Source: an uncultured Actinomycetota bacterium
GTDB lineage: Bacteria > Actinomycetota > Actinomycetes > Propionibacteriales > Nocardioidaceae
Direction: 5' to 3'
DNA: 64,000 nt
Assembly: GCA_963796975.1 (NCBI GenBank)
Contig: CAWCNW010000023.1
Coordinates: 35,305-99,304 of the forward strand
Below the pieces are notes generated by a model that ran no database searches, had not been told where the DNA came from, and worked only from the letters and a program-made list of their open reading frames with translations. Within the stretch, counting starts at the first letter, position 1. The number at the start of each line of letters is the position of its first letter. A program made the translations under genes and the position numbers. Below, one piece after another: positions 44,312 to 60,498 of this stretch.

Positions 44312-46003
44312 TCAGCGGGCGCGGCGGACCCGGGTCTCGTCCCAGACCGGGCCGTCGGACTCGTAGACCTCGCCGTCCGCGCCGTAGACGAGGAACCGGT
44401 CGAAGCCACGGGCGAACCAGCGGTCGTGGGTGACCGCGACGACGGTGCCGTCGAACGCCTCCAGCCCGGCCTCGAGCGCCTCGGCGGACTGCACGTCGAG
44501 GTTGTCGGTCGGCTCGTCGAGCAGCAGCAGCGTCGCCCCCGACAGCTCGAGCAGCAGGATCTGGAAGCGCGCCTGCTGGCCGCCGGAGAGTGACTCGAAG
44601 GTCTGCTCCGAGGCGTGGGCCAGCTCGTAGCGGTCGAGCACCCGGGCCGCGGCCTCGCGCCCCATCCCGTCGCGGTGCTCGTCGCCCCGGTGCAGGATCT
44701 CCAGCAGGGTGCGGCCGAGCAGCTCGGGGTGTGCATGGGTCTGCACGAACCAGCCGGGCCGCACCCGGGCGCCCAGCTTCGCCTTGCCGGTGTGGCGCAC
44801 TGGATCGATCTTCGTCGAGTCGACCGGTCGGTGCTCTACGTCGGGATCCGAGCCGCCGGCGGCGAGCAGCCGCAGGAAGTGCGACTTGCCGGAGCCGTTG
44901 CTGCCCAGGACGGCGACGCGCTCGCCGTACCAGACCTCGAGGTCGAACGGCTCCATCAGCCCGGTCAGCTCCAGGCCCTCGCAGATCACCGCGCGCTTGC
45001 CGGTGCGGCCGCCCTTGAGCCGCATCGTGACCTGCTGCTCGCGTGGCTGCTCTGTCGGAGGACCGGCCTCCTCGAACTTGCGCAGGCGCGTCTGGGCGGC
45101 CTTGTACTGCGAGGCCATGCCGTCGTTGTACTCCGCCTTGATCTTCAGCCGGAGGACGAGCGCCTTGATCTTGGCGTGCTCCTCGTCCCAGCGACGCCGC
45201 TGCTCCTCGAAGCGCGCGAACCGGTCGCGCCGCGCCTCGTGGTACGACGCGAACCCACCCGGGTGCGTCCAGGCGCTGTTGCCGCCGCCGAACGAGCCGA
45301 GCTCGATGGTGACGATCCGCGTCGCGGTGTGGTCGAGCAGCTCCCGGTCGTGGCTGATGAAGAGGATCGTCTTGGCGGAGTCGCGGATCCGCTGCTCCAG
45401 CCAGATCTTGCCGGGCACGTCGAGGAAGTTGTCGGGCTCGTCGAGCAGGAGCACCTCGTCGGGACCCTCGAGGAGGTACTCCAGCACGAGCCGCTTCTGC
45501 TCACCGCCGCTGAGGGTCGACAGGGTGCGGTACTTCGCGCGGTCGTAGGGCAGGCCGAGGCCCCGGACCGTGCAGACGTCCCACACCACCTCGAGGTCGT
45601 AGCCACCGGCGTCGGCGTACTCCGCCAGCGCCTCGGCGTAGCGGAGCTGGGTCTTCTCGTCGTCGGTCTCCATCAACGCGAGCTCCCAGCGCTCGACGTC
45701 GGCCGAGGCGGCCCGGACCCGCTCCGGCGAGACCGACAGGAGGAGATCGGCGACCGTCGGGTCGTCGCCGAGGTCGGTGCCGACCATCTGGCGCATCACC
45801 CCGAGCCCGCCCGTGCGTGTGATCACCCCGGCATGCGGCACCAGGTCGCCGGTGATGATCCGCAGCAGGGTCGTCTTGCCGGCGCCGTTGGCCCCGACCA
45901 GCGCGACCTTCGCGCCGTCGCCGACGCGGAACGCGACGTCGTCCAGGAGGACCCTGCCGTCGGGCAGCTCGTAACGCACTCCGGCGACATCCACGTGACC
46001 CAC
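44312..46003 (-). CDS. ABC-F family ATPase (two ABC domains, no membrane domain; translation-factor type)
   Basis: Two Walker A motifs (GANGAGKTT, GSNGSGKSH), two signatures (LSGGEQKR, LSGGQQAR), an inter-domain linker and no TM segment. Confidence 0.9.
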   Translation of the reverse strand: MGHVDVAGVRYELPDGRVLLDDVAFRVGDGAKVALVGANGAGKTTLLRIITGDLVPHAGVITRTGGLGVMRQMVGTDLGDDPTVADLLLSVSPERVRAASADVERWELALMETDDEKTQLRYAEALAEYADAGGYDLEVVWDVCTVRGLGLPYDRAKYRTLSTLSGGEQKRLVLEYLLEGPDEVLLLDEPDNFLDVPGKIWLEQRIRDSAKTILFISHDRELLDHTATRIVTIELGSFGGGNSAWTHPGGFASYHEARRDRFARFEEQRRRWDEEHAKIKALVLRLKIKAEYNDGMASQYKAAQTRLRKFEEAGPPTEQPREQQVTMRLKGGRTGKRAVICEGLELTGLMEPFDLEVWYGERVAVLGSNGSGKSHFLRLLAAGGSDPDVEHRPVDSTKIDPVRHTGKAKLGARVRPGWFVQTHAHPELLGRTLLEILHRGDEHRDGMGREAAARVLDRYELAHASEQTFESLSGGQQARFQILLLELSGATLLLLDEPTDNLDVQSAEALEAGLEAFDGTVVAVTHDRWFARGFDRFLVYGADGEVYESDGPVWDETRVRRAR

Positions 46004-46050: not shown

Positions 46051-49000
46051 CTACCGGGCGTTCTCCCGCAGCGACGAGGTGCGGGCGCCCCGCACCGTGA
46101 GGGTCGCGAACAACGTCGCGAGCACCAGCAGCACGAGCATCACCGCGATCCCGAGCTCGAAGCCGGTGCTGACGTGGAACGACGGCAGCACCCGCGGCGT
46201 GAGCTGGGAGTCGACGAAGCCCAGCGTCACGGTGCGGACGACGACGGCCTGGGCGAGGGCGCCCGCGGCGATGCCCGCCAGCGCGGCCGCTCCGAGGACC
46301 AGCAGGAACTCCGCGACGACGCCGATCATGATCGACCGGCGTCTCACGCCGACCACCCGCAGGGAGGCCGCGTCGCGTCGTCGGGCCGGCAGCTGTACGG
46401 CGAGGTTGGCCGCCAGACCCGCGAACGCCAGCAGGATCACCAGCACGGTGACCACGATGTACAGCCGCAGCGCGAGCGCGAACGCGTCCTGGTCGAGAAG
46501 CGTCCGCGCGGCGGCCTCGGTGTCGGGACGGACCAGGCCCCTGGCGGCGAGCTGCCTCAGCACCGACCCAGGAGTGTCCGCACGGGCCCAGACGTAGACC
46601 TGGTTCGAGCTGTTGCTCTGCACGGTGTTGCGGTCGAACATCGTGAAGTCCATCAGCATGCCCGAGGGCCCGCGGAACGGCACCGACTCCGCGGTGCCCG
46701 CCGAGCGCACCCGGAACAGCCCCGAGGATCCGGTCTGCAGCTGGGTCTGCGGTGTCGCGGTCCGGCCGAAGAGCACGGGAACCACGGCCGGTACGTCGGT
46801 CGGGCTGATGCCGGAGTAGAAGTTGGAGCTACGTGCGTCGAAGACGACGTCGAGGTGCCCGTCGGCCAGCGTGGGCTGACGGCGTACGCCCATCGGGGTG
46901 CCGACCTTCGACGCCGCAGCCCGCCACGGGGCGTCGAGAGCTCCTGGCACGGGTTGCCCGTCGACGGTGAAGGACTCGATGGTCGCCGTGCCGTGCATCG
47001 CCTCGACCAGCGCGTCCGGCCCGCCGAAGCTGATCGTCTCGAGCAGACAGCCCTGCTGACAGGAGGGGAGCCGCGCGGTCGCGGTCGAGCGCCCCGGCGG
47101 GTAGGGGCCGACGCTCACCTCGCGGGCGGCTCCCTGGTCGTCGAGGATCCCCAGCGACAGGCCGAGCCGGCCGAAGTCGCCCTGCACCCGGTTGTCGACC
47201 GCGATCGTCACCTGCGAGCCCTTCAGCACCACCGATGGCCGCTGCGGACCCAGCGCGCGCGCGATCTGGGCGGCCGAGTGCCCCGGCGTCCACTGCGACG
47301 GCCAGGACGCGACCCGCGCCAGCCGGCTGGTGTCGACCACGACTCGCGGAAGGACGGTGACGCCGGCCTCGTCGGGATTGGGGGTGTTGACCCCCGCCGC
47401 CATCAGCCAGCGACCACCCGGATCCAGCTGATGGGTGAGCCCCACGGCCCGCGACAGCGGGAGGTTGGTCGGGAACGACAGCGGCGCGCCCACCTGGGTG
47501 GCGGCCGCGCTCGCCCGCCAGGTCGAGGCGGCCAGGGAGACACCGACCGTGAAGACCGCGACCGTCAGGGCGGCCGTCACCGGCAGGATCACCAGCGTGC
47601 CCTCACGGCGGCGGCGCACGGTGCGTGAGGCGACGTACGACGAGAGCGAGCGGCGCTTGGCGGACCAGCGCACCCACACGTCGGCCACGACGAGCACCAG
47701 CAGTCCGCAGAGCAGGCCCACCGCGACCGCGAGCAGTATCGGCAGGGACAGGTCGGTGGCGTCCGGAGCCTGCGGATGGCTCCGGCTGGCGGCGACCACG
47801 AGTGCAGCGACGGCCGCGGCGACCATGACCAGCCGCACGATCACCAGGCTTCGGCTGGCGCGGGTGGGACGCCGTACGCCGGCGATCTGAGAGCTCAGCG
47901 GCTCGTTGACGGCGTCGCGCACGACCAGGGCCGCGACCAGCCCCGTCACCAGCACCACCCCCACCACCGCGAGCAGGCTGCCGAGCACGAACGGCACCGG
48001 GAGACCGGGCACCAGCCATCGCCGCGCGAGCAGCCGGGAGGTCAGGTAGCCCAGACCCACGCCGACCGGGGTGGCGACGGCCAGGATCAGCAGCGGCTCG
48101 AGCATGCCGAGGAACCAGAGCTGACGGCGGCCGTACCCGCGCAGCGACGCCAGCGCCAGCTCGCCGCGGCGCAGCCCCATCGCCGCGGCCAGCAGCCTGG
48201 ACAGCAGCACCAGCGCGACCAGGATCAGCGACAGCACCGCGGGCTGGACGGTGGACCGGGCGACGCCGCGCCGGGCCAGCAGCTCGTGGGTGGTCTCGGG
48301 CAGCGAGTTGCCTGGCTCGAGCGACAGCCCGGTCAGCAGCTGGCCGCGCTGGTCGGCCTTCCGGAGAGCGCCCACCCGGGCGGCGGTGAGCGCCGCATCC
48401 TCCGGCGTGAGCTGCGGCGTGACGCGTAGGGCCTGGTCGACGGTGACGAACCAGCCGTTTCCGTTGAGCTCGATCCCGGCCTGGGTGGTGATCCAGGGCG
48501 CGAGCTGCGACGGGATCAGGGTGGGCAGTTGCCGGCCGGGGGCGGTCTGCAGCCGCGGTCCGAACCAGAACCCGTCGTCCTGCGCCTTCGGCGTATAGAT
48601 GCCGACCACGGTGAAGACCTGGTTGTACTCGGGCTGCACGATCGTGGAGCCGAGCTTCCAGCCGTAGGTCTCGGCGTCGGCCTTCAGCACCGCGATCTCG
48701 CCCGGCGAGGTGGGGCACCGTCCCTGTAGTGCGACGTGGGTGCAGGCTCCGGGCACCGACACCAGGCGGGCGATCGCGGGGATCGACGAGGCGGGAAGCG
48801 TCGTCGCGGCCAGCTCGTCCCACACCATCGCGTGCCCGGGTTCGTAGCCCGTCCCCGACTCGCGGGAGGTCTCGTCGAGGGCGGTCACGGTCGCGGCGTC
48901 GGCGTCCTCCTGGTCGGCGTGCTGGTAGTCGTAGGTGAGCCCGGTGTTGATGAGGGGCTGGGCCCGCAGCTGCGCGATCACGAAGGAGTTGGCGGCGTTC

Positions 49001-49131
49001 AGCTGGTAGCTCGGCCCGACGACCGCCGAGGCGATCGCGATCGCCGTGAGCAGCAGGGAGCCGAGGGTGAGCGCCGTGCGCGAGGCCAGCCCGCGCAGGC
49101 TCGTGGCGATCAGCCAGCCCAGGCGAGTCAT
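46051..49131 (-). CDS. FtsX-like ABC transporter permease, duplicated (about 10 TM, two large extracytoplasmic domains), 1026 aa
   Basis: ATG at 49131 overlaps the upstream stop (ATGA). Two FtsX-type 3-TM bundles lie at the middle and the C-terminus. The upstream part of ORF 46051..50034 is an Arg-rich artefact. Confidence 0.8.
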   Translation of the reverse strand: MTRLGWLIATSLRGLASRTALTLGSLLLTAIAIASAVVGPSYQLNAANSFVIAQLRAQPLINTGLTYDYQHADQEDADAATVTALDETSRESGTGYEPGHAMVWDELAATTLPASSIPAIARLVSVPGACTHVALQGRCPTSPGEIAVLKADAETYGWKLGSTIVQPEYNQVFTVVGIYTPKAQDDGFWFGPRLQTAPGRQLPTLIPSQLAPWITTQAGIELNGNGWFVTVDQALRVTPQLTPEDAALTAARVGALRKADQRGQLLTGLSLEPGNSLPETTHELLARRGVARSTVQPAVLSLILVALVLLSRLLAAAMGLRRGELALASLRGYGRRQLWFLGMLEPLLILAVATPVGVGLGYLTSRLLARRWLVPGLPVPFVLGSLLAVVGVVLVTGLVAALVVRDAVNEPLSSQIAGVRRPTRASRSLVIVRLVMVAAAVAALVVAASRSHPQAPDATDLSLPILLAVAVGLLCGLLVLVVADVWVRWSAKRRSLSSYVASRTVRRRREGTLVILPVTAALTVAVFTVGVSLAASTWRASAAATQVGAPLSFPTNLPLSRAVGLTHQLDPGGRWLMAAGVNTPNPDEAGVTVLPRVVVDTSRLARVASWPSQWTPGHSAAQIARALGPQRPSVVLKGSQVTIAVDNRVQGDFGRLGLSLGILDDQGAAREVSVGPYPPGRSTATARLPSCQQGCLLETISFGGPDALVEAMHGTATIESFTVDGQPVPGALDAPWRAAASKVGTPMGVRRQPTLADGHLDVVFDARSSNFYSGISPTDVPAVVPVLFGRTATPQTQLQTGSSGLFRVRSAGTAESVPFRGPSGMLMDFTMFDRNTVQSNSSNQVYVWARADTPGSVLRQLAARGLVRPDTEAAARTLLDQDAFALALRLYIVVTVLVILLAFAGLAANLAVQLPARRRDAASLRVVGVRRRSIMIGVVAEFLLVLGAAALAGIAAGALAQAVVVRTVTLGFVDSQLTPRVLPSFHVSTGFELGIAVMLVLLVLATLFATLTVRGARTSSLRENAR

Positions 49132-51275
49132 CGTTCGGCCTCCCGGAGCGCGGAGGGGCGGGCGGCGCGGCCGAACCGGGTGAACACCGCGGTGCAGCAG
49201 GCGGCGGTCACGACGGCCACCCCGAGACCCACTGCGGTGAGGACCCACGGGCGTACGGCGAGGTCGATGAGCGGCGCGACCGCCCAGCCGCCGACCAGCT
49301 CCATCGGACCGAGCAGGGTGGTGGTCGTGGCGGCCGCGGTCACGACGGCGGCTACGAGCACGATGCCGGCCAGGGCGAGCGCCTCGACGACGTAGGCACG
49401 CCGTACCGCGCCGGGGAGCAGGCCCGCCGCTCGCAGGCCGGCCACCTCGGCCCGCCGCCGCGACATCTGGCCCGCGAGCCAGGCGACCAGGTGGGTGAGC
49501 GCGACCAGGGCGACCCCGATCGCGACGAGCAGCGCGAGCCGGTCGGCGCGGGCCTCGGTGGTGCCGTCGAAGGCCGCCCGCACCGAGGCGTACGTCGTGG
49601 GCGCACCGCCGCCGTCCGTACGGAGCCGCGCGAGGACGGCCGGCGGGGTGTCGGCGCGGGCGATGACGACCGCGTGCGCGGCGGGGATGGTGCCGACGGC
49701 GCCGCGGAGGACCCGCGGCAGGTCGAGCAGGCTGCCGGACCGGCCGAGGAAGGGCACGGCGCCGACCGGACCGACGACCCGGATCCCGGGGTTCTGGCCG
49801 TCGAGGCCGGGCACGGTCGCGTGCAGGGAGACGTCGGAGGTGGTGAGGGCCTGCATGGCCTCGGCCGGCGGCGGGTGCGCGGACTGGTCGAAGGAGAGCA
49901 GCGGGACCGCACCTTTCCCGGTGTACGAGACCGGGTCGCTCACCAGGTTCTGGGAGCCGGCGGTCACCCGGCGTACGACGAACGGTGCGGCGCCGCCGAC
50001 GGTCACGGACAGCACCGAACAGCCGACCCGGCACTGACGCAGCGGACCGGTCGCCTCGCCGTTGCCGGTCACCCGCACCCGGGTGGTCAGGGGGAAGCCG
50101 CCGTCGCCGACGTAACGAGCGACCACGGTGCCGGTGCTGCCTCCGCTGCCGCCGAACCCGGACACCAGCACTCGCAGCGACGTGCCGGTCATCAGCACCG
50201 GGTCGGGCTGCTTGGCCAGGGCGGTGATCCGGGAGGTCGCGCCGGCGACGCTGGTGCTGGTCATGAAGTCACCCACGACCGCGGGCCAGCGCGCGGAGTC
50301 GACGAAGACCCGACGGTCGAAGGGTCGTTGGTCGTCGATCGCGACGGCCGCCATCAGCCAGGTGCCGCGGGGGTCGGCGTCGTGGGCCGCGGCGTACGCA
50401 CGCAAGCCGCCAGCGGTGAACGGCACCGCGAGCGGTCCGCCGGCCCGCAGGCGGGAGGCGTCGTCGCGCCAGGCCGCCGCCGCCCGGCCGCCGGTGAGGG
50501 TGACCGCAAGCAGGACGGTCGCGGCCACCAGGATGCGGACCACCGAGGCGGGGTCGGGGTCGCGCCGGAGCCGTCGGCTGGTCAGCGCCGGCCCGAGCCG
50601 CTGCCCGAACCGCGGGACGAGCAGCATCAGCCAGGCCACCACCTGTCCCGCCGCCAGCGCCACCAGGGCGGGGGCGATGACCGGGACCCAGCCCTCTCCG
50701 CGGCGGTGCGCCTCGTAGACCGCGAGCACGGCGCCGGCGACGACCAGGATCTCGAGGAACGAGGTCAGCCAGGAGCCGGTCCGGCGTCGCGGATGCACCG
50801 ACAGCGCGTCCCCGAGAGGCCGCCGGATCACCGAGGCGGCCACCACCGCGACGGTCGCCCAGGAGCCGAGCAACAGGCCGACGCCGAGAAGGATCTCGCG
50901 CGCGCCGACGGAGTACGACGTGTGCCAGCCGTCGGCGATCCGCTTCGCCAGCAGCACACCGAGCCCGGTGCCGAGCGCGACCCCGACCAGGCTCACCACG
51001 AGCAGCGGGCCGGCCGCGAAGCCGACCAGCCGGATCCCGGTCATCCCCCGCAGCCGGGCCAGCGCGACGTCGTGGATCCGGTCGACGGTCGAGCGTGCCG
51101 TCTGCTCGGCCAGCACCACCGCGCCGTACAGAGCGAGCATCGCGGCCACGGCGGTCGGGGTGTGGCCGGTACGGGACGCGCCGACCACGGCCACCGCGCC
51201 GGCGGCGACCACGAGGGCCAGCACGAACGTCGCGGACGAGGCGACCAGGTGCGACCGGATGCTGCGCAGGAGCAC
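49128..51275 (-). CDS. FtsX-like ABC transporter permease, duplicated (about 10 TM), 715 aa
   Basis: N-terminal and C-terminal FtsX-like TM bundles separated by an extracytoplasmic domain of about 300 aa. Confidence 0.8.
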   Translation of the reverse strand: MLLRSIRSHLVASSATFVLALVVAAGAVAVVGASRTGHTPTAVAAMLALYGAVVLAEQTARSTVDRIHDVALARLRGMTGIRLVGFAAGPLLVVSLVGVALGTGLGVLLAKRIADGWHTSYSVGAREILLGVGLLLGSWATVAVVAASVIRRPLGDALSVHPRRRTGSWLTSFLEILVVAGAVLAVYEAHRRGEGWVPVIAPALVALAAGQVVAWLMLLVPRFGQRLGPALTSRRLRRDPDPASVVRILVAATVLLAVTLTGGRAAAAWRDDASRLRAGGPLAVPFTAGGLRAYAAAHDADPRGTWLMAAVAIDDQRPFDRRVFVDSARWPAVVGDFMTSTSVAGATSRITALAKQPDPVLMTGTSLRVLVSGFGGSGGSTGTVVARYVGDGGFPLTTRVRVTGNGEATGPLRQCRVGCSVLSVTVGGAAPFVVRRVTAGSQNLVSDPVSYTGKGAVPLLSFDQSAHPPPAEAMQALTTSDVSLHATVPGLDGQNPGIRVVGPVGAVPFLGRSGSLLDLPRVLRGAVGTIPAAHAVVIARADTPPAVLARLRTDGGGAPTTYASVRAAFDGTTEARADRLALLVAIGVALVALTHLVAWLAGQMSRRRAEVAGLRAAGLLPGAVRRAYVVEALALAGIVLVAAVVTAAATTTTLLGPMELVGGWAVAPLIDLAVRPWVLTAVGLGVAVVTAACCTAVFTRFGRAARPSALREAER

Positions 51276-51281
51276 GCCGGA

Positions 51282-51947
51282 CTACCGCCCGTCGCCCGCG
51301 AGGAACAGCTCGTCGCCGCCGGCGACCAGCCGGCCCTCGTCGAGCACGAGCGTGCGGTCGGCCGCGTGCACGACGGCGGGGTCGTGGGTGGCGACCACGA
51401 CGATCGCGCCGCGGGCCGCCTCGGCGCGCAGCTGGTCCATGACGTGCTCGCGGTTGCCCTCGTCGAGCTCGCTGGTGGGCTCGTCGGCGAGCAGGATCTG
51501 GGGGGCGACCGCGAACGCGCGGGCGCAGGCCACGCGCTGCATCTGCCCGCCGGACAGCTCCTCCACCTGCCGGTCGCCGAGGTCACCGATGTAGAACCGG
51601 GTGAGCTCGAGGTCGGCGCGCTCGTCGGCCTCGCGGGGCCGCTCACCGCGGGCCCGCAGCGCGATCGCGACGTTCTCGCGGGCGCTGAGGATCGGCACCA
51701 GCCCGTAGACCTGGAGCACGAACGCGACCTCGTGGCGTGGGTCGCCGTCGCCCTGCCACATGTGCCGGCCGCCGTACGTCGCGAAGCCCGTCGTCGGCTT
51801 CTGGATGCCGCCGGCGATCGAGAGCATGGTCGTCTTGCCGGAGCCCGACGGGCCGGACAGCGCGGTGACCTCGCCGGGCCGGAACTCCAAGGTGACCCGC
51901 TCGAGCGCCCACCGTCCTCCGACGTTGAGCGAGACGTCCTCGAGCAC
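51282..51947 (-). CDS. ABC transporter ATP-binding protein (MacB/LolD-type), subunit B
   Basis: GPSGSGKTT, LSGGQMQRVACA, LLADEPTSELD, VATHD. GTG start at 51947 is proposed; an upstream non-ATG start is possible. Confidence 0.85.
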   Translation of the reverse strand: MLEDVSLNVGGRWALERVTLEFRPGEVTALSGPSGSGKTTMLSIAGGIQKPTTGFATYGGRHMWQGDGDPRHEVAFVLQVYGLVPILSARENVAIALRARGERPREADERADLELTRFYIGDLGDRQVEELSGGQMQRVACARAFAVAPQILLADEPTSELDEGNREHVMDQLRAEAARGAIVVVATHDPAVVHAADRTLVLDEGRLVAGGDELFLAGDGR

Positions 51948-51994
51948 CAGGTCGTCGGTGGCCGGCTCCGGGACCGGATGCAGGTCCGGCCATG

Positions 51995-52930
51995 TCAGAC
52001 CACCTCGTCGTCGGTGGCGGACCGGCTCAGCAGCAGGCGGTCGGCCTCTTCGGGCTCGATCCGCACCAGCGTGCCCGGCGGCCACTCACGCGCGATGTGG
52101 GCGGGCAGATGGACGACGCCCTCCGCACCGACCACGACGTACTCAGCGCCCTCGCGGCCCTCCATCCCGACCCGGCCGCCGCGCATGGTGACCGTGCGCG
52201 GGAAGGTGCCGGCGACCTCGGGCTGGTGGGTGACCACCAGGATCGTCGTCCCGAAGTCGTTGCCGAGGCCGTGGATCAGCTCGAGCATGTGGTCGCGGTC
52301 CTCGTGGCTGAGCTGGCTGGTCGGCTCGTCGGCGAGCAGGAGCTGGGGCGCGCTGGTCACGCTGCAGGCCAGGGCCAGGCGCTGGCGTTCGCCCCCCGAC
52401 ATCGAGGAGACCACCTGGTCGCGCTTGGCCTCCAGCCCCACCCGGCGGAGCAGCTCGGCGTCACCGAGGGTGCGGTCGGGGTCGCTGCTGGCCGACCGGC
52501 TGAAGCGCAGGTTCTGGCGGGCCGTGGCGTAGTGCAGGAGGTTGCGGGTGGCGCCCTGGAGCATGGTGCTCACGCGCGAGGCGCGGACCTTGGTGAGCTG
52601 GCGCTCGCTCATCCGCGAGATCTCCTCGTCGCCGAGGAAGATCCGGCCGGCGCTGGGCCGCTGGATCCCGCCGAAGAGGGTCAGCAGCGTCGACTTGCCC
52701 GAGCCGCTGGGGCCGAGGAAGGCGACCCGCTCGCCGGCCTCGACGGTGAGGTCGACGCCCTGGAGGGCGACGACGTCGTGGCCCTCGAAGGTCTTGTAGA
52801 GGTGGACCAGGCCCTGGCACCGGACCGACAGCCCGCCCGTGCGCTCGGCGGTTGCTTCCACTGCTCCCCCTCCACCCGCCCGTACCGGGCCCTGCCTGTC
52901 TGACGCAGCAGTATCGCCCACGGTTGTCAT
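51995..52930 (-). CDS. ABC transporter ATP-binding protein (MacB/LolD-type), subunit A, with a C-terminal extension of about 70 aa
   Basis: GPSGSGKST, MSGGERQRLALA, LLADEPTSQL, VVTHQ. ATG at 52930. Confidence 0.85.
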   Translation of the reverse strand: MTTVGDTAASDRQGPVRAGGGGAVEATAERTGGLSVRCQGLVHLYKTFEGHDVVALQGVDLTVEAGERVAFLGPSGSGKSTLLTLFGGIQRPSAGRIFLGDEEISRMSERQLTKVRASRVSTMLQGATRNLLHYATARQNLRFSRSASSDPDRTLGDAELLRRVGLEAKRDQVVSSMSGGERQRLALACSVTSAPQLLLADEPTSQLSHEDRDHMLELIHGLGNDFGTTILVVTHQPEVAGTFPRTVTMRGGRVGMEGREGAEYVVVGAEGVVHLPAHIAREWPPGTLVRIEPEEADRLLLSRSATDDEVV

Positions 52931-52946
52931 GGGGACCCGAGATGGC

Positions 52947-53067
52947 GGTGAGTGTGCCACCGAACTGGTCAGGGACAAGGTGGCAGGCTCACCGCTACGG
53001 CGGGGGCCCGGCCCGGTGGCGGTGGGTGTGCCACCGATCCGGTGAGGGAAAAGGTGGCAGGCTCACC
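52947..53067. repeat. Tandem pair of hairpin repeats GGTG(A/G)GTGTGCCACC-N17-GGTGGCAGGCTCACC in a divergent promoter region
   Basis: Unit 1 arms at 52947-52961 and 52979-52993. Unit 2 arms at 53021-53035 and 53053-53067. Same family as 14922-15041. Confidence 0.7.
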
Positions 53068-53092
53068 GCCAAGCAAGGACCAGGAGGCAACG

Positions 53093-53761
53093 GTGAAGCT
53101 ACTGCTCACGTCCGGCGGCGTGACGAACCCGACCATCCGCGAGGCGCTGGTCGGGCTGCTCGGCAAGCCGATCGCCGACAGCACCGCCCTCTGCATCCCC
53201 ACCGCGCAGTACGGGCATCCGAACGTCGGCCCCGGCGTCCGGCCGTGGCAGTTCATCAGCGGACACTCCGAGAACCCCATGGTCGAGCTGGGCTGGAAGT
53301 CCGTCGGAGTGCTGGAGCTCACCGCGCTGCCCAGCATCGACGAGGAGCACTGGGTGCCTCTGGTCCGTGAGACCGACGTCCTGCTGGCAGCGGGCGGCGA
53401 CGCCCTCTACCTGTGCCACTGGATGCGCGAGTCGGGGCTCGCGGACCTCATCCCCTCACTCACCGAGACGGTCTGGGTGGGGCTGAGTGCCGGCAGCATG
53501 GTGATGACACCCAGGATCGGCGAGGACTTCGTCCAGTGGAGGTCGCCGACCGGTGACGACAGCACTCTGGGCCTCGTCGACTTCTCGATCTGCCCGCACC
53601 TGGCTCCCGATGGCAAGCCCGGCAACTCGATGGCCGAGGCGGAGCAGTGGGCGGCCGGCCTCGGGGGTACGACGTACGCCATGGACGACCAGACGGCGAT
53701 CCAGGTCGTCGACGGCACCGTCGAGGTCGTCTCCGAGGGGTACTGGAAACAGCTCAGCTGA
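53093..53761 (+). CDS. Peptidase E-like (S51 family / type 1 glutamine amidotransferase-like) protein
   Basis: KLLLTSGG at the N-terminus, GLSAGSMV nucleophile-like block. AGGAGG lies 6 nt before the GTG at 53093. Confidence 0.75.
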   Translation: MKLLLTSGGVTNPTIREALVGLLGKPIADSTALCIPTAQYGHPNVGPGVRPWQFISGHSENPMVELGWKSVGVLELTALPSIDEEHWVPLVRETDVLLAAGGDALYLCHWMRESGLADLIPSLTETVWVGLSAGSMVMTPRIGEDFVQWRSPTGDDSTLGLVDFSICPHLAPDGKPGNSMAEAEQWAAGLGGTTYAMDDQTAIQVVDGTVEVVSEGYWKQLS

Positions 53762-54380: not shown

Positions 54381-55204
54381 GCGTCCCGCCTGGCGCGCGT
54401 CGTGCCGGCTCGGGCGGCGAGGTCGGCGTCGGGCGGGTAGGCGACCTCCTCGAGCGTCAGCCCGTGCGGGGGTACGACGGTCACGGCGGGGTCGCGGACC
54501 CCGGCGGCGAGGACCTCGGCCGGCCAGGCGACGGGGCGGCGTCCCTCGCCGACCGCGAGCAGGCACCCGACCAGCGACCGCACCATGTGGTGGCAGAACG
54601 CGTCGGCGCGGACGGTGCCGGTCACCAGGTCGCCGTCGCGGGTCCAGGCGAGGTCGAGCAGGGTGCGGACCGTGGTCGCGCCCTCGCGCTGCTTGCAGAA
54701 CGCCGCGAAGTCGTGGAGGCCGAGGAGCGACGCCGAGGCGGCGTTGAGCGCGTCGACGTCGAGCGGGCGGGGCCAGGCGAGCACGTGGTGGCGGGTGAGC
54801 GGGTCGGGTACGCCATCGGTGACGCGGTAGGCGTACCGACGCCAGAGCGGTGAGAAGCGTGCGTCGAAGCCGTCGGGCGCGGCGACCACACGCCGTACCC
54901 GGAGGTCGGCGGGCAGCAACCCGTCGAGCCGGCGCGCGAGCGCGTCGCACGGGTCGCCGTCGTACCTCCCGGCGGCCGCCGCGAGCGCCTGCGGCTCGAC
55001 GTCGAGGTGGACGACCTGGCCGCGGGCATGGACCCCGGTGTCGGTGCGGCCGGCGCAGACCACGGTGGGGCCGTCGACCCGCAGGACGGTTGCCAGGGCT
55101 GACTCCAGCTCGCCCTGCACGGTGCGCAGCCCCGGCTGGGTGGCCCAGCCGTGGAAGTCGCCACCGTCGTAGGCGAGATCCATCCGCAGGCGCACGGTGG
55201 GCAT
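54377..55204 (-). CDS. truA: tRNA pseudouridine(38-40) synthase TruA
   Basis: [25 protein letters not shown] (catalytic Asp), [11 protein letters not shown]. The real start lies inside the long 54377..57070 ORF. Confidence 0.93.
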
Positions 55205-55249
55205 CCTAGGCGGGCGACGTCGCGGCGTTCGCCGCCTACGATCGGTGCA

Positions 55250-56917
55250 ATGGACGACCGCCCCGCCATCCTGCTCGCGTCGGAGGAGAACTCCGAGTTC
55301 CTGCTCGACGAGTTCGGCCGCTATGCGCGCGACTACGACGTACGCGCCGTGCGCAGCGCCGCCGAGGCCGCGGCCACGGTCAAGGGCCTGTACCGCGAGG
55401 GACGGCAGCTCGCGCTGGCCGTCTCGGAGTCGGTGCTGCCCGACGACGAGGTGCTCGCGATGTTCCAGCGGCTGCGCACCTACGTGCCCACCGCGCGCCG
55501 GCTGATCGCCGCGCACTGGACCCGCTTCCGCACCGACGCCGAAGCACTCCGCCCCGCGCTCGCCAAGGGCAAGTACGACGCGTACCTGCTGATGCCGCGC
55601 GGCCCCCGCGACGAGGAGTTCCACACCGCGGTCTGCGAGCTGCTCTCCGACTGGGGCTCGACGGTCGCCGCGCCGGTCGTGGAGAGCCTCCGGATCGTGT
55701 CGCCGACCAACGACGGGCTCACCCTCGCGGTCCGTGACTACCTGGACCGGATCGGCGTACCGGCGCTCGTGCACCACCCCGACAGCGAGATCGGCCGCGA
55801 GGTCCTCGCCAAGCTCGGCGACCAGACCCCCGTCTACCCGCTGGTCGAGCGGTGGGACGGCGACCCCTACACCGTCACCTCGGTACGCGACGTCGCGATG
55901 ACGATCTACGGCCGACCCGACGACATCGAGGTCGACTCCGTGGTCGACCTGGTCATCGTGGGCGCCGGGCCGGCGGGGCTCGCCGCGTCGGTGTACGGCG
56001 CCTCCGAGGGGCTCTCCACCGTCGCCATCGAGGCCGAGGCGATCGGCGGGCAGGCCGGCACCAGCTCGATGATCCGCAACTACCTCGGCTTCCCCCGCGG
56101 CATCTCCGGGATGCGGCTGGCCCAGCGCGCCCGCAACCAGGCGATCCGCTTCGGGGTCCACTTCTACACCGGCTGGCCCGCGACGGGGCTCGACGTCGGG
56201 CGCGACGGCGCCCCGCACGTCGTACGCACCGAGGGCGGCGACGTGCACGCACGGGCCGTCGTGATCGCCTCCGGAGTCACCTACCGCAAGCTCGGCGTGG
56301 AGTCGGTCGACTCCCTGGTCGGGCAGGGCGTCAACTACGGCGCCGCCATGACGGCGGCCCGCGAGATGGAGGGGTACGACGTGTTCGTGGTCGGCGGCGG
56401 GAACTCCGCCGGCCAGGCCGCGATCCACCTGGCCCGCTTCGCCCGCAGCGTCACGATCCTGGTGCGCCGCCCCGACCTGACGGCGACCATGTCGGCGTAC
56501 CTGATCGGCGAGATCCAGTTCAACCCGCGGATCTCCGTCGAGGGCTGCCGGCAGGTGGTCGACGGCGGCGGCAACGGACGGCTGGAGTGGATCGAGGTCG
56601 AGGACACCTCCACCGGCGAGCGCACCCGCCGCGACGCCGGCGGTCTCTTCCTGCTGCTCGGCGCGGTCGCCCACTGCGACTGGCTGCCGCCCGAGGTCGC
56701 CCGCGACCCGCGCGGCTTCGTGCTGACCGGGCGCGACGTACCGGGTGTGGGGTGGGACGACGGCCTGCCGCCGGAGAACCTGCAGACCACGGTGCCCGGG
56801 ATCTTCGCCGTCGGTGACATCCGTGCGGGCTCGATGAAACGGGTCGCCAGCGCGAGCGGTGAGGGCGCCTCCGTCGTGCCGTTGGTGCACACCTGGCTGG
56901 AGCCGGCGCCCGGCTGA
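55250..56917 (+). CDS. Thioredoxin-reductase-like FAD/NAD(P)-binding oxidoreductase with an N-terminal extension of about 230 aa; lacks the CxxC redox motif
   Basis: [34 protein letters not shown]. At the position of the TrxR CATCDG motif the sequence reads [12 protein letters not shown]. Confidence 0.8.
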
Positions 56918-57005
56918 TCCCGGTCTGTGAGGCGGGTCACGACACCCGGCCGGGGGCGGTCCGCCGAAGCGGGTCGGCGACCTCCCCGTTGGTACGGTTA
57001 CGCCC

Positions 57006-59708
57006 GTGTCAGCGGCCTCCACGGACCGGTTCTCCTCGGTCCCCACCTCTCGGTTGAAGAGGCTCGGCATCTGGCTCGTGGTCGCGCTCGTCGTGCTCTA
57101 CGCGCTCTGGGAGGCCTTCCTGGCGCTGGTGAACATCCGCACCAACGTGCTCTGGTACCGCTCGGTCGACACCGGCTCGGTCTACCGGACCATCCTGGGC
57201 GCCCAGGTACTGCTGTTCTTCGTCTTCGGTGTGCTCGCCGCGCTGGCTGTCGCGGCCACGCTGCTCGTCCTGATCCGACACCGACCCCGGTTCCGTCCCG
57301 ACCCGGCCCGGCACAAGTGGCGGCACCGCTTCCTCCGCTTCGACCGCCGGTTCCGGCTCTGGCTGGTCGGGGCCGTCGCCCTGTACCTGGGCGTCCGCGC
57401 CGGCACTGCGGCGACCCACCGCTGGCAGGCCTACGAGATGTGGCGGCACGCCCAGCCCTTCCACCAGACCGACCCGCAGTTCCACCGCGACGTCTCCTAC
57501 TTCGTCTCGGTGCTGCCGTTCCACCTGGCCGTCGTCGGCTTCCTCACCTCGATCGTGGTCGCCTGCCTGCTGGTCACCCTGGTCGCCGGCTACCTGTACG
57601 GCGCGCTGCGGATCCGCGGCCGCGGACGCAAGCTGACGCCGGCGCTCAAGGCGCAGATCTCGGTGCTGCTCGGCCTCTACCTGCTGCTCAAGGCGTCGTC
57701 GTACTGGCTGGGCCGCTTCTCCCTCACCACCTCGAACCGCGGCCCGGTGACCGGTCTGTCCTACACCGACACCCACGCCACGCTGCCCGGGCTCACCGTC
57801 CTGGTGGTGGTCGCGTTCCTGCTGGCACTGCTGCTCTTCGCGAACGCCTGGCTGGGCAGGCTGCGCTGGATCGCGGTCGCCGTCGGCGGGATGGTGGTCG
57901 CCGCGCTGATCTTCGGCACCGCGCTGCCGTCGCTGGTCTTCAAGTTCCGCGAGCAGCCGAGCGCCTCCACCGTCGACCGCCCCCTCATCGCGCGCAACCA
58001 GGCCGCGACGTTGAAGGCCTTCGGCCTCGACGGGAACGTCACGACGCAGGAGTACGGCGCCACGGGCAGCACGCCGACCACCACGAGCGTGGCCCGCGCC
58101 CGGCGCTCGGCCCAGATCCGGCTGCTCGACCCGAACAAGCTGTCGCCGACCTTCAACGTCAAGCAGGAGATCCAGGCGTTCTACCAGTTCAAGACGCCGC
58201 TCGACATCGCCCACTACCCCCTCGGCGCGCGCGACCAGGACGTCGCGATCGCGGCCCGCGAGCTCAACCTCTCCGGCATCTCGCGCAGCACCTGGTCCAA
58301 CCGGCACCTCATCTACACCCACGGGTACGGCGTGGTGGCCGCGCCGACCGACCAGCTCAACGACAACGGCGAGCCGATCTTCGTCAACGGCGGCCTGCCC
58401 CCCGTGAACCAGATCCCGGTGACGGTGCCCCAGATCTACTTCGGCCAGCACTCACCGTCGTACTCCATCGTCGGCGAGCCCCCGGGCAGCACCAAGAACG
58501 TCGAGTTCGACCACCCGAGCACCAACGGCGGCACGACCGGCGTGCACAACACCTACCAGGGCAAGGGCGGCGTGCCGATCGGCTCACGCCTGACCCGGCT
58601 GCTGTACGCCGTCCAGCTCGGCGACCCGAACATCTTCTTCTCCAGCGGCATCAACTCCGGCTCGCAGCTGCTGACGGTGCGCGACCCGCGCAAGCGCGTC
58701 GCCAAGGTCGCCCCGTGGCTGACCCTCGACGGCGACGTCTACCCGGCCTTGGTCGACGGCACGGTGCAGTGGGTGGTCGACGGCTTCACCTCGAGCGCGC
58801 GCTATCCCGACTCCCAACAGCTCAACCTGCACCAGGCGACCGCCAACTCCTTGACCAACGCGACGGGCATCGCGAGCCAGCCGCCCCAGCAGGTCAACTA
58901 CCTGCAGAACTCGGTCAAGGCCGTCGTCGACGCCTACTCCGGCAAGGTCACGCTGTACTCCTGGAACCAGCAGAGCCAGCCCGACCCGGTGCTGCAGACC
59001 TGGGAGAGCGCCTTCCCGGGCCTCGTCCAGCCCGAGTCGAGCATCCCGCCGGCCCTGTTGGAGCGCCTGCGCTACCCGCAGGACCTCTTCGACGTACAGC
59101 GTGCGCTGCTCACCCAGTACCACGTCGCGGACCCGAGCGACTTCTACAACGGTGCCGACTTCTGGAAGGTCCCCACCGACCCGACCGTCGCAGCGACGAA
59201 GACCTTCAACGGCCGCGGCGCGAGCGGCTCGTCGCCCACCATGCCGTCGACGTACATGTCACTCTCGCCGACCGGCGACGGCCCGTCGCAGTGGGCGCTC
59301 TCCACGCCGATGGTCACCCTCAACTACCGCCAGCTCGCGGGCTTCCTGTCCGTGAACGCCCAGCCCGGCCCCGACTACGGGAAGCTCACGTTGCTGGACT
59401 TCCCGGCCGGCCAGTCGGTCGAGTCGCCGGCGCAGACCCAGAACGACATCGACTCCGACAACCAGATCGCGAGCGCACTCACCCTGCTCCGCGGCAACTC
59501 CAAGGTGGTGCTCGGCAACATGCTGACCATCCCCCTGGACAACAAGGTGCTGTACGTCGAGCCGGTCTACACCCAGGCCAGGGGCTCGAACTCCTTCCCG
59601 AAGCTGAGCCGCGTGATCGCGGTGTACGGCAACGGGCAGCCCGCGTTCAAGCCCACTCTCAACGCCGCCCTGCGGCAGGCGATCGCCAACGACGCCCGGC
59701 GCTCCTGA
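57006..59708 (+). CDS. UPF0182 family large membrane protein
   Basis: 900 aa with about 7 N-terminal TM helices and a large C-terminal domain. Blocks [22 protein letters not shown] and LYVEPVY are typical of actinobacterial UPF0182. Confidence 0.8.
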
Positions 59709-59739
59709 CCGCACCCTGCGCGGGTGTGACCATGGGTGC

Positions 59740-60498
59740 ATGGTCGAGCGCGCTCTGAGCTTCGGATCGGTGGCAGCGGCGTACGAACGGTTCCGTCCCG
59801 GCTACCCCGACGAACTCGTCGACGAGGTGCTCGCCTATGCGGGCCGGCCGGTCGCCTCGGCCCTGGAGATCGGTGCGGGTACCGGCAAGGCCACCCGGGT
59901 GTTCGCCCGGCGTGGGATTGCCGTCACAGCCACCGATCCTGACGCCGCGATGCTGGCCGAGCTGCGCCGCCACGTGCCCGACACGGTCGCCACCGTGCAG
60001 GCACGCTTCGAGGACCTGCCCCTCACCCCGGTCTACGACCTGGTCCTCGCCGCAGCATCCCTGCACTGGACCGAGCCGGACGGTCGTTGGTCACGAGTTG
60101 CCGCGATGCTCGGCTCCGCGGGGATCTTCGCCTCCTTCGGAGCGCAGGTGCACCTGGCCGACCCCGACCTCGAGGCGGCCGTCCGGGCAGCACGGGCTCC
60201 GCACCTCGCTGATGACGACGTTGCCTCACCCGACGGCACGCCGCCCGACAGCCCGTGGCAGTGGCCAGGGACCGAACTGGTCAGGTCGAACCTGTTCACC
60301 GACGTCCGCCAGTCGGTGATCGCACGTCGTCCGACGGCCTCGGCCAGTGACTACGTCGACCATCTCTCGACGATCTCGGCGTACCTCGAGCTGGCCGTCG
60401 CCGAGCGAGAAGTCGTGCTCGACCGGATCCTGGGCGTGCTCCCGGACCGGGTGGCGCTCGTCGCCGACCTCACCCTGCACCTGGCCCGACGGGTCTGA
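59740..60498 (+). CDS. Class I SAM-dependent methyltransferase
   Basis: ALEIGAGTGKAT motif I, 252 aa. Confidence 0.8.
   Translation: MVERALSFGSVAAAYERFRPGYPDELVDEVLAYAGRPVASALEIGAGTGKATRVFARRGIAVTATDPDAAMLAELRRHVPDTVATVQARFEDLPLTPVYDLVLAAASLHWTEPDGRWSRVAAMLGSAGIFASFGAQVHLADPDLEAAVRAARAPHLADDDVASPDGTPPDSPWQWPGTELVRSNLFTDVRQSVIARRPTASASDYVDHLSTISAYLELAVAEREVVLDRILGVLPDRVALVADLTLHLARRV

Follow-up and report, generated by a model that had tools for sequence, protein, structure and literature searches.

A block of four genes on the minus strand of a 64,000-nucleotide stretch of DNA (the window; G+C content 72%) from an uncultured actinobacterium of the family Nocardioidaceae encodes an ATP-binding cassette (ABC) system with two ATPases, A and B, and two large permeases, P1 and P2. 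The block is best interpreted as a type VII ABC system in which A and B form a heterodimeric motor with one invariant and one relaxed ATP site, the motor most likely driving P1 and P2 alternatively; the probability of this interpretation was put at about 0.6. The family to which the block belongs is widespread in soil Actinomycetota and is uncharacterized. ATPase A (51995–52930) comprises 311 amino acids (aa) from an ATG codon, with an alternative TTG start at 52978, and is followed by ATPase B (51282–51947; ∼221 aa from a GTG codon). The start codon of B is uncertain; its reading frame is open as far as 52085, and there is no clear ribosome-binding site. P1 (49128–51275; 715 aa) and P2 (46051–49131; 1026 aa) come next. 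The A–B gap measures 47 nt and the B–P1 gap 6 nt, and the P1 stop codon overlaps the P2 start codon in an ATGA at 49128–49131. The gene order, the overlapping junction, and the small gaps described in an earlier sequence-only reading were thus borne out by the coordinates of the open reading frames (ORFs), and a scan for terminators returned no terminator-like site within the four-gene block.

Both ATPases matched PF00005 in Pfam (E-values of 1.8e-28 for A and 2.2e-27 for B). The nearest NCBIfam models for both were LolD, DevA, FtsE, L_ocin_972_ABC, and MacB-type nucleotide-binding domains (NBDs), every score lying below the equivalog cut-off, and the PDB sequences closest to ATPase A were the NBDs of YbbA, LolD, and MacB. 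By sequence, A and B are assigned to the LolD/MacB/FtsE subfamily of NBDs. They share 34% identity (BLASTP), and the alignment stops at residue 260 of A. The Walker A motif, the Asp-Glu pair of Walker B, and the H-loop His are intact in both proteins of this genome, as had been noted from the letters alone, and the signatures read MSGGE in A and LSGGQ in B. The D-loop is SQLS in A, instead of S-x-L-D, and SELD in B, and the A-loop region of B is without an aromatic residue. The Ser in the D-loop of A and the missing aromatic residue of B are the only deviations of the relaxed site (defined below) in this genome. Their status as fixed traits of the family was borne out only in part, since most A proteins have Asp at this position and many B proteins have an aromatic residue nearby.

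ABC ATPases dimerize head to tail, each ATP site consisting of the catalytic motifs of one subunit and the signature and D-loop of the other. Motif statistics were compiled for 68 orthologous A/B pairs. In A, the Walker A Lys, the Q-loop Gln, the Walker B Asp-Glu, and the H-loop His were each present in 68/68, and the A-loop Tyr/Phe in 67/68. In B, the signature SGG was conserved in 68/68 (LSGG[QE]) and the D-loop Asp in 67/67. The remaining positions were found to be relaxed: A had an intact SGG in 36/68 (lost in 32/68) and the D-loop Asp in 53/68 (lost in 15/68), and B had the H-loop His in 64/67 and the Q-loop Gln in 64/68, the aromatic residue of the A-loop region being missing in 20/68. 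Owing to the head-to-tail geometry, all of these deviations fall in the site composed of the catalytic motifs of B and the signature and D-loop of A, and the other site is invariant. The non-canonical A signatures vary by family (SPGQ, TPGQ, PPGQ, SAGx, and STGQ, in at least eight families), which points to repeated, independent relaxation. The sequence-only reading had held that the system is not a degenerate-site heterodimer; this is true of the present genome but does not extend to the orthologous pairs, where one site is relaxed. As A2 or B2 homodimers would not yield a complementary pattern of this kind, the conservation of A and B indicates an asymmetric A:B heterodimer.

The organization of the locus across the phylum was examined with ATPase A as a probe (E ≤ 1e-45, the match being required to reach the C-terminal tail). 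Orthologues were found in 57/401 genomes (∼14%) and 39/174 genera of its own class, Actinomycetes, and in 18/301 genomes of other classes of the phylum, with none in f33 and f51, two large-genome families that were sampled. Sixty loci obtained with this probe were retrieved. The usual order is P-A-B, with one P2-like permease of 1000–1130 aa; one family shows P-P-A-B, its named relatives being Sporichthyaceae, Angustibacter, and metagenome-assembled genomes (MAGs) of Micromonosporaceae. In 70 of 71 loci, which come from more than 20 families, the B gene directly adjoins the A gene irrespective of the number of permeases (one or two); among the loci with both genes, one B is cut by the end of the contig and one is frameshifted. 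Most families have a single permease and still keep both ATPases, so that one ATPase per permease is not the rule, and each of the three other FtsX permeases of this genome with ten transmembrane (TM) helices has a single adjacent ATPase gene. The arrangement of two ATPases and two permeases described in the sequence-only reading is hence real and recurrent, but the commonest and ancestral form is that of two ATPases and one permease.

Closer to the present genome, soil metagenomes and MAGs contain abundant homologues of P1 and P2, which are labeled only as "hypothetical" or "FtsX-like permease," and the nearest named homologues are those of Nocardioides and Nocardioidaceae. The order A-B-P1-P2 was observed in ∼60 of 74 named Nocardioidaceae/Propionibacteriales loci, including those of N. 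koreensis JCM 16022 and N. cremeus SOB44; the remaining loci are mostly truncated or frameshifted contigs or orphan copies. The recurrence of the same order in roughly 60 related loci shows that the four-gene arrangement is not due to chance. The cassette is patchy inside the genus, with ∼9 of 25 sampled genomes carrying it.

These findings bear on a rival explanation of the block, that of two independent conventional transporters in one operon, each permease being driven by a homodimer of its own ATPase (A2-P1 and B2-P2, for example). The count of two ATPase and two permease genes would fit such an arrangement, as would the near-canonical motifs of both ATPases in this genome and the homodimeric NBDs of all characterized type VII systems (those of Bacillus subtilis in Table 6 of PMC11466899, and YbbAP). 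However, most families hold A and B together with one permease, and the complementary conservation of A and B would be left unexplained. An A2 homodimer would place a signature that is often degenerate (32/68 without SGG) at both of its sites and would thereby be crippled. In addition, P1 is a recent duplicate of P2, as described below, and the split between A and B is far older. Two independent transporters are therefore considered quite improbable, and the A:B heterodimer is retained as the preferred motor.

The permeases were analyzed for family, topology, and fold. PF02687 (FtsX) matched two stretches in each permease in Pfam (1.7e-08 for P1 and 4.9e-15 for P2), and hydropathy together with AlphaFold2 models (mean pLDDT of 74.6 for P1 and 81.5 for P2) showed ten TM helices in each. 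Hence, P1 and P2 are FtsX-type permeases of the type VII ABC/MacB superfamily, fused double-FtsX proteins with two four-helix bundles each, and their earlier assignment to the FtsX type is confirmed. The one or two outer domains of ∼300 aa that the same reading had predicted were also found. P1 has almost no TM1–TM2 loop and a single β-rich extracytoplasmic domain of ∼300 aa between TM7 and TM8 (approximately residues 280–572), which is the layout of BceB. P2 carries two extracytoplasmic domains (ECDs), one of ∼240 aa between TM1 and TM2 (ECD1; ∼58–295) and one of ∼335 aa between TM7 and TM8 (ECD2; ∼548–882), which is the layout of YbbP. Foldseek comparison with the PDB returned YbbP as the best match of P2 (9ge6_A, 8.9e-17 over the full length), followed by MacB (∼3e-08), LolE, and BceB; P1 matched BceB (8g3a_A, 9.8e-07) and YbbP (9ge7_A, 1.2e-06). 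The TM-scores of P1 and P2 against solved type VII permeases were modest (0.34–0.54). A sequence search of the PDB gave no match for P1 and none of significance for P2 (best PsdB, E 0.22), and NCBIfam holds no model for either permease. PF12704 (MacB_PCD) was undetected in P1 and P2 by Pfam, even at E up to 10; the P2 model gave Foldseek matches to the periplasmic region of MacB (3ftj, 3.9e-03) and to a LolE domain (5udf, ∼2e-02).

Residues 227–619 of P1 align with residues 496–929 of P2 (27% identity, 8e-23), and the outer domain of P1 is accordingly the counterpart of ECD2. Conserved cysteine pairs are present in all three outer domains (C130/C139 and C691/C695 in P2, and C415/C419 in P1), within motifs that are invariant or nearly so and are retained in distant orthologues, namely, GxC...GRCP in ECD1 and CxxGC in ECD2 and in the outer domain of P1. 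These pairs probably form extracellular disulfides. The coupling-helix motifs after TM2 (R-x-P-E-[LIV]-A-L-A-[KR]-L-R-G, N-terminal half) and after TM8 (R-x-x-[ED]-x-A-A-L-R-x-x-G, C-terminal half) are each strongly conserved over 90 permeases, yet differ from each other, and the half-specific forms are common to P1 and P2. This is faintly suggestive of each permease half docking a specific ATPase. As a separate observation, PF00005 was found together with permease sequence in a single database protein, P0289 (1297 aa; 71% identity with a P2-like permease, 85% of the query being covered). Either a natural fusion of permease and ATPase or an artefact of gene calling or frameshift may account for it; a true fusion would break the rule that fused-dimer FtsX permeases never bear a fused NBD.

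A maximum-likelihood tree of the 90 permeases, built with FastTree, placed P1 and P2 of Nocardioidaceae as sister clades (supports of 100 and 100, joint node 97). It follows that P1 arose from a P2-like gene by a lineage-specific duplication, with loss of the first outer domain, and one locus (L108) still has a full-length permease of 1064 aa at the P1 position. The permeases of the P-P-A-B family arose through a separate and independent duplication in the same tree. Orphan paralogues that are ∼60% identical to P2 were found at three loci (L060, L061, and L114) with no ABC ATPase gene within 6 kb, and the MAGs that carry them also hold a complete A-B-P1-P2 cassette (L059, L057, and L066). On these sequence grounds, P2 is assigned as the ancestral partner of the A/B pair, and one A:B motor probably serves several permeases.

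Beyond its ABC domain, ATPase A has a C-terminal extension of ∼50 aa (51998–52147, minus strand), which is kept family-wide (66 orthologues) with the motif G-x-x-x-LP...PPG-x-x-x-R. Weak matches of this tail to PF04014 (SpoVT/AbrB/MazE) were obtained in 5 of 27 members, with a best E-value of 0.019; the isolated segment had no significant match in Pfam, and a profile search against the PDB gave nothing convincing. A putative AbrB-like nature of the tail is thus a weak lead. The tail could serve to bridge a single super-complex, in which P1 and P2 each sit on an A:B pair and the pairs are held together, for example, by AbrB-like dimerization of the C-terminus of A. Translational coupling of P1 and P2 through the ATGA overlap, the stable retention of both permeases together across Nocardioidaceae, and the faint likeness of the tail to a swapped-hairpin (AbrB/MazE) half-barrel, a fold that requires a second copy, would all be in line with such an assembly. 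Apart from the weakness of the AbrB-like assignment itself, the extension is equally conserved in loci with one permease, and orphan P2 copies are found away from any P1. Such a super-complex is thus regarded as unlikely, and alternative complexes of one shared A:B motor with either P1 or P2 remain the simplest reading.

In the mechanism proposed for such a shared motor, the invariant site, composed of the Walker A, Walker B, Q-loop, H-loop, and A-loop of A and the signature and D-loop of B, would be the catalytic one. The relaxed site, composed of the catalytic motifs of B and the signature and D-loop of A, would probably have a slower or regulatory role. Each permease is a pseudo-dimer of two FtsX bundles; hence, one permease with one A and one B would make up a complete 1:1:1 machine, comparable to YbbP with two YbbA or to BceB with two BceA. 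A single motor would feed the alternative complexes A:B:P1 and A:B:P2, with P2 as the YbbP-like ancestral partner and P1 as a BceB-like partner derived from a Nocardioidaceae-specific duplicate minus the first outer domain. Closure of A:B, driven by ATP at the invariant site, would be passed on by the coupling and stalk helices to the presumably disulfide-bearing outer domains, in the manner of the mechanotransmission known from MacB, LolCDE, and YbbAP. The outer domains would act on an extracytoplasmic target, most likely by extracting or expelling a molecule of amphipathic or lipid-like character from the outer leaflet or the wall zone.

A role in extracting or expelling an amphipathic molecule associated with the membrane is tentatively favored over a BceAB-like defense, and the latter over activation of a partner protein, although even the first is held to be short of an even chance. 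The ranking takes account of three features: the cassette is located in the core genome, no sensor or regulator accompanies it, and the first outer domain of P2 is YbbP/MacB-like. A search of the surroundings showed no two-component system, adaptor, or lipoprotein gene within ∼10 kb of the cassette, so that the absence of these genes asserted in the sequence-only reading holds over that distance. A BceAB-like module for detoxification or sensing, offering protection from lipid II binders or from antimicrobial peptides that target the cell wall, would suit the BceB architecture of P1, with BceB as its top structural match, the soil actinobacterial hosts that meet antibiotics, and the fast evolution of the outer domains (30–40% identity vs. 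∼70% for the ATPases). The ancestral permease, however, is of the two-domain YbbP type, the NBDs appear to be heteromeric, unlike BceA, no BceRS-type two-component system or regulator is linked to the cassette in ∼130 loci, and the cassette lies in conserved core-genome neighborhoods. This role is accordingly seen as a minority possibility. An FtsEX-like activator, whose outer-domain movements would switch on an extracellular hydrolase or another partner protein, has precedents among type VII systems in FtsEX-EnvC/RipC and YbbAP-TesA, and the large, well-folded outer domains with conserved cysteines would suit it. Against this stands the finding that no partner gene is conserved beside the cassette in any lineage. 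The divergently oriented S51 peptidase gene upstream, which was considered as a TesA-like partner, was rejected because its position next to the cassette is not maintained, even among the closest relatives. Partner activation is rated slightly below the defensive role.

Several observations weigh against the overall interpretation of an asymmetric heterodimeric motor acting on an amphipathic substrate. The Asp-Glu of Walker B is present throughout (A, 68/68; B, 67/67), so that the relaxed site is not a classical dead site, and both ATP sites look competent in the present genome. The counts of motif asymmetry are not phylogenetically independent, and one locus (L144, in a genome of 68% completeness) shows P-A without B. 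As regards the substrate, clustering of the neighbors at 73 loci identified no accessory gene, regulator, or two-component system conserved across lineages, and the isolated outer domains had no Pfam match and hence give no substrate clue.

Type VII ABC systems, among them MacB, LolCDE, FtsEX, BceAB, and YbbAP, serve efflux, lipoprotein sorting, cell division, and antibiotic sensing, and all those studied to date work with two copies of one ATPase. The present family may, at odds a little under even, be the first of the type VII class to be described in which the motor is an obligate heterodimer, with a relaxed site that is perhaps regulatory, an AbrB-like tail that possibly senses or bridges, and a motor shared among interchangeable permeases (P1, P2, and the orphans). 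If this is true, one engine would stand behind several different extracytoplasmic tasks. The recurrent permease duplications and the orphans suggest a principle of motor sharing that would be new for the type VII class. Two specialized ATPases on an asymmetric permease would also allow a direct test of how each ATP site is coupled to each half of the mechanotransmission machinery, and of whether asymmetric ATP sites, well known in type IV exporters, have evolved independently in the type VII fold.

The surroundings of the cassette were analyzed for further components. Upstream of ATPase A lies a divergent intergenic region (52931–53093), presumed to hold the promoter; a promoter scan detected no sigma-70-like promoter in it. 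Between ATPase A and the S51 peptidase gene, a hairpin-forming unit of ∼47 nt is present in two direct copies (52947–53067) and reads ggtgagcctgccacc...ggtggcaca[ct]ccaccgcc, and the sole terminator-like match of the scan (53071–53055, minus strand) lies inside one copy of this repeat. A second, 12-nt direct repeat, GCCACCGACGAC, occurs in two copies 56 nt apart at 51951–52021; the copy at the end of ATPase A encodes ATDD, and the other likewise reads as ATDD in the B frame just upstream of the presumed start of B.

The neighboring genes encode a citrate synthase, a DUF2127 protein, an HtrA-like protease, the S51 peptidase, a methyltransferase, and a TrxR-like flavoprotein, and are of a housekeeping nature. 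The ABC-F gene (44312–46003) follows P2 after 47 nt, the position given in the sequence-only reading; its best model was "ribosomal protection-like ABC-F" at 246 bits against a cut-off of 380, and the protein is of a generic translation-factor type. It was rejected as a component of the system and is taken as a syntenic neighbor, since the only relatives in which it accompanies the cassette are closer ones with the same HtrA/DUF2127/citrate-synthase context. Methylmalonyl-CoA mutase, GroEL, GlgB, and a thioredoxin-like gene were likewise rejected as partners, with only housekeeping synteny seen over the 73 loci. The TrxR-like flavoprotein gene (55151–56917) also occurs within a few kb of the P-A-B cassettes of another family (L029, 15169–17196; L030, 17569–19500; phmmer scores of 581–596 bits), which is more suggestive of an old chromosomal synteny than of a functional connection. 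An ORF of ∼940 aa at 56927–59758 has a high G+C content at third codon positions (GC3) and no Pfam match.

No characterized orthologue of the cassette was found in the literature searched, in agreement with the view of the sequence-only reading that no substrate is assigned to such a cassette, and the two-ATPase arrangement, which it had singled out as unusual, matches no type VII system characterized there. According to a review of the MacB family, fused permeases have either one periplasmic domain, as in BceB, or two, as in YbbP, and their NBD is a separate protein; a heteromeric NBD is not mentioned there (PMC5985334). All eight type VII systems of B. subtilis were modeled with two copies of one NBD (PMC11466899). 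The full-text literature searched did not describe heteromeric NBDs for any type VII system, and degenerate-site heterodimers appeared there only among type IV exporters.

The closest likeness of P2 is to YbbAP(-TesA) of Escherichia coli (PDB 9GE6–9GE8), with which it shares the topology of ten TM helices, FtsX bundles joined by TM5–6, and outer domains at TM1–2 and TM7–8; the MacB-type NBD is separately encoded in both systems. In the YbbAP structure, two YbbA are bound to one YbbP, and the coupling helices lie between TM2–3 and TM8–9 (PMC12646458). YbbA is a homodimer, whereas two different ATPases are encoded here, one with a C-terminal extension, and YbbAP has TesA as a partner, whereas no TesA-like partner gene is conserved beside the present cassette. 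The sequence identity of YbbP and P2 is ∼14%, the ECD2 of P2 is much larger (∼335 aa, with an extra β-rich insert), PF12704 is undetected in P2, and the host is a monoderm actinobacterium. The BceAB(-RS) and PsdAB systems of B. subtilis (PDB 7TCG, 8G3A, and 9UGG) share with P1 the ten TM helices and the sole outer domain between TM7 and TM8, a layout that P2 does not have, and the intrinsic asymmetry of the BceAB complex can be likened to that proposed here. BceA is a homodimer from one gene, in contrast to the two ATPase genes, 34% identical, of the present system; BceAB is tied genetically and physically to BceRS, whereas no two-component system accompanies the present cassette; and BceB and P1 share ∼10–11% identity, the outer domain of P1 comprising ∼300 aa with the CxxGC motif.

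Like the present system, LolCDE is of type VII and has two different permease genes in one operon, which corrects the generalization of the sequence-only reading that characterized systems use one ATPase gene and one permease gene. The ECD1 of P2 resembles the periplasmic domains of LolE and MacB (Foldseek 5udf and 3ftj). LolC and LolE are the four-TM halves of a heterodimer that is powered by a LolD homodimer; the present permeases, on the other hand, are fused dimers, and the ATPases are predicted to be heteromeric. The nearest parallel for the motor is provided by the heterodimeric ABC exporters (TM287/288, TmrAB, BmrCD, PatAB, and Rv1273c/72c), which likewise have two NBDs with an invariant consensus site and a tolerant site. 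A degenerate site with deviations split in a complementary manner over the two subunits has been described for heterodimeric type IV exporters (PMC7756269). Those exporters are type IV half-transporters in which the NBD is fused to the transmembrane domain, and their degenerate site usually is without the catalytic Glu; in the present system, the NBDs are separate proteins working with a type VII permease, and the Walker B Glu is kept in both ATPases.

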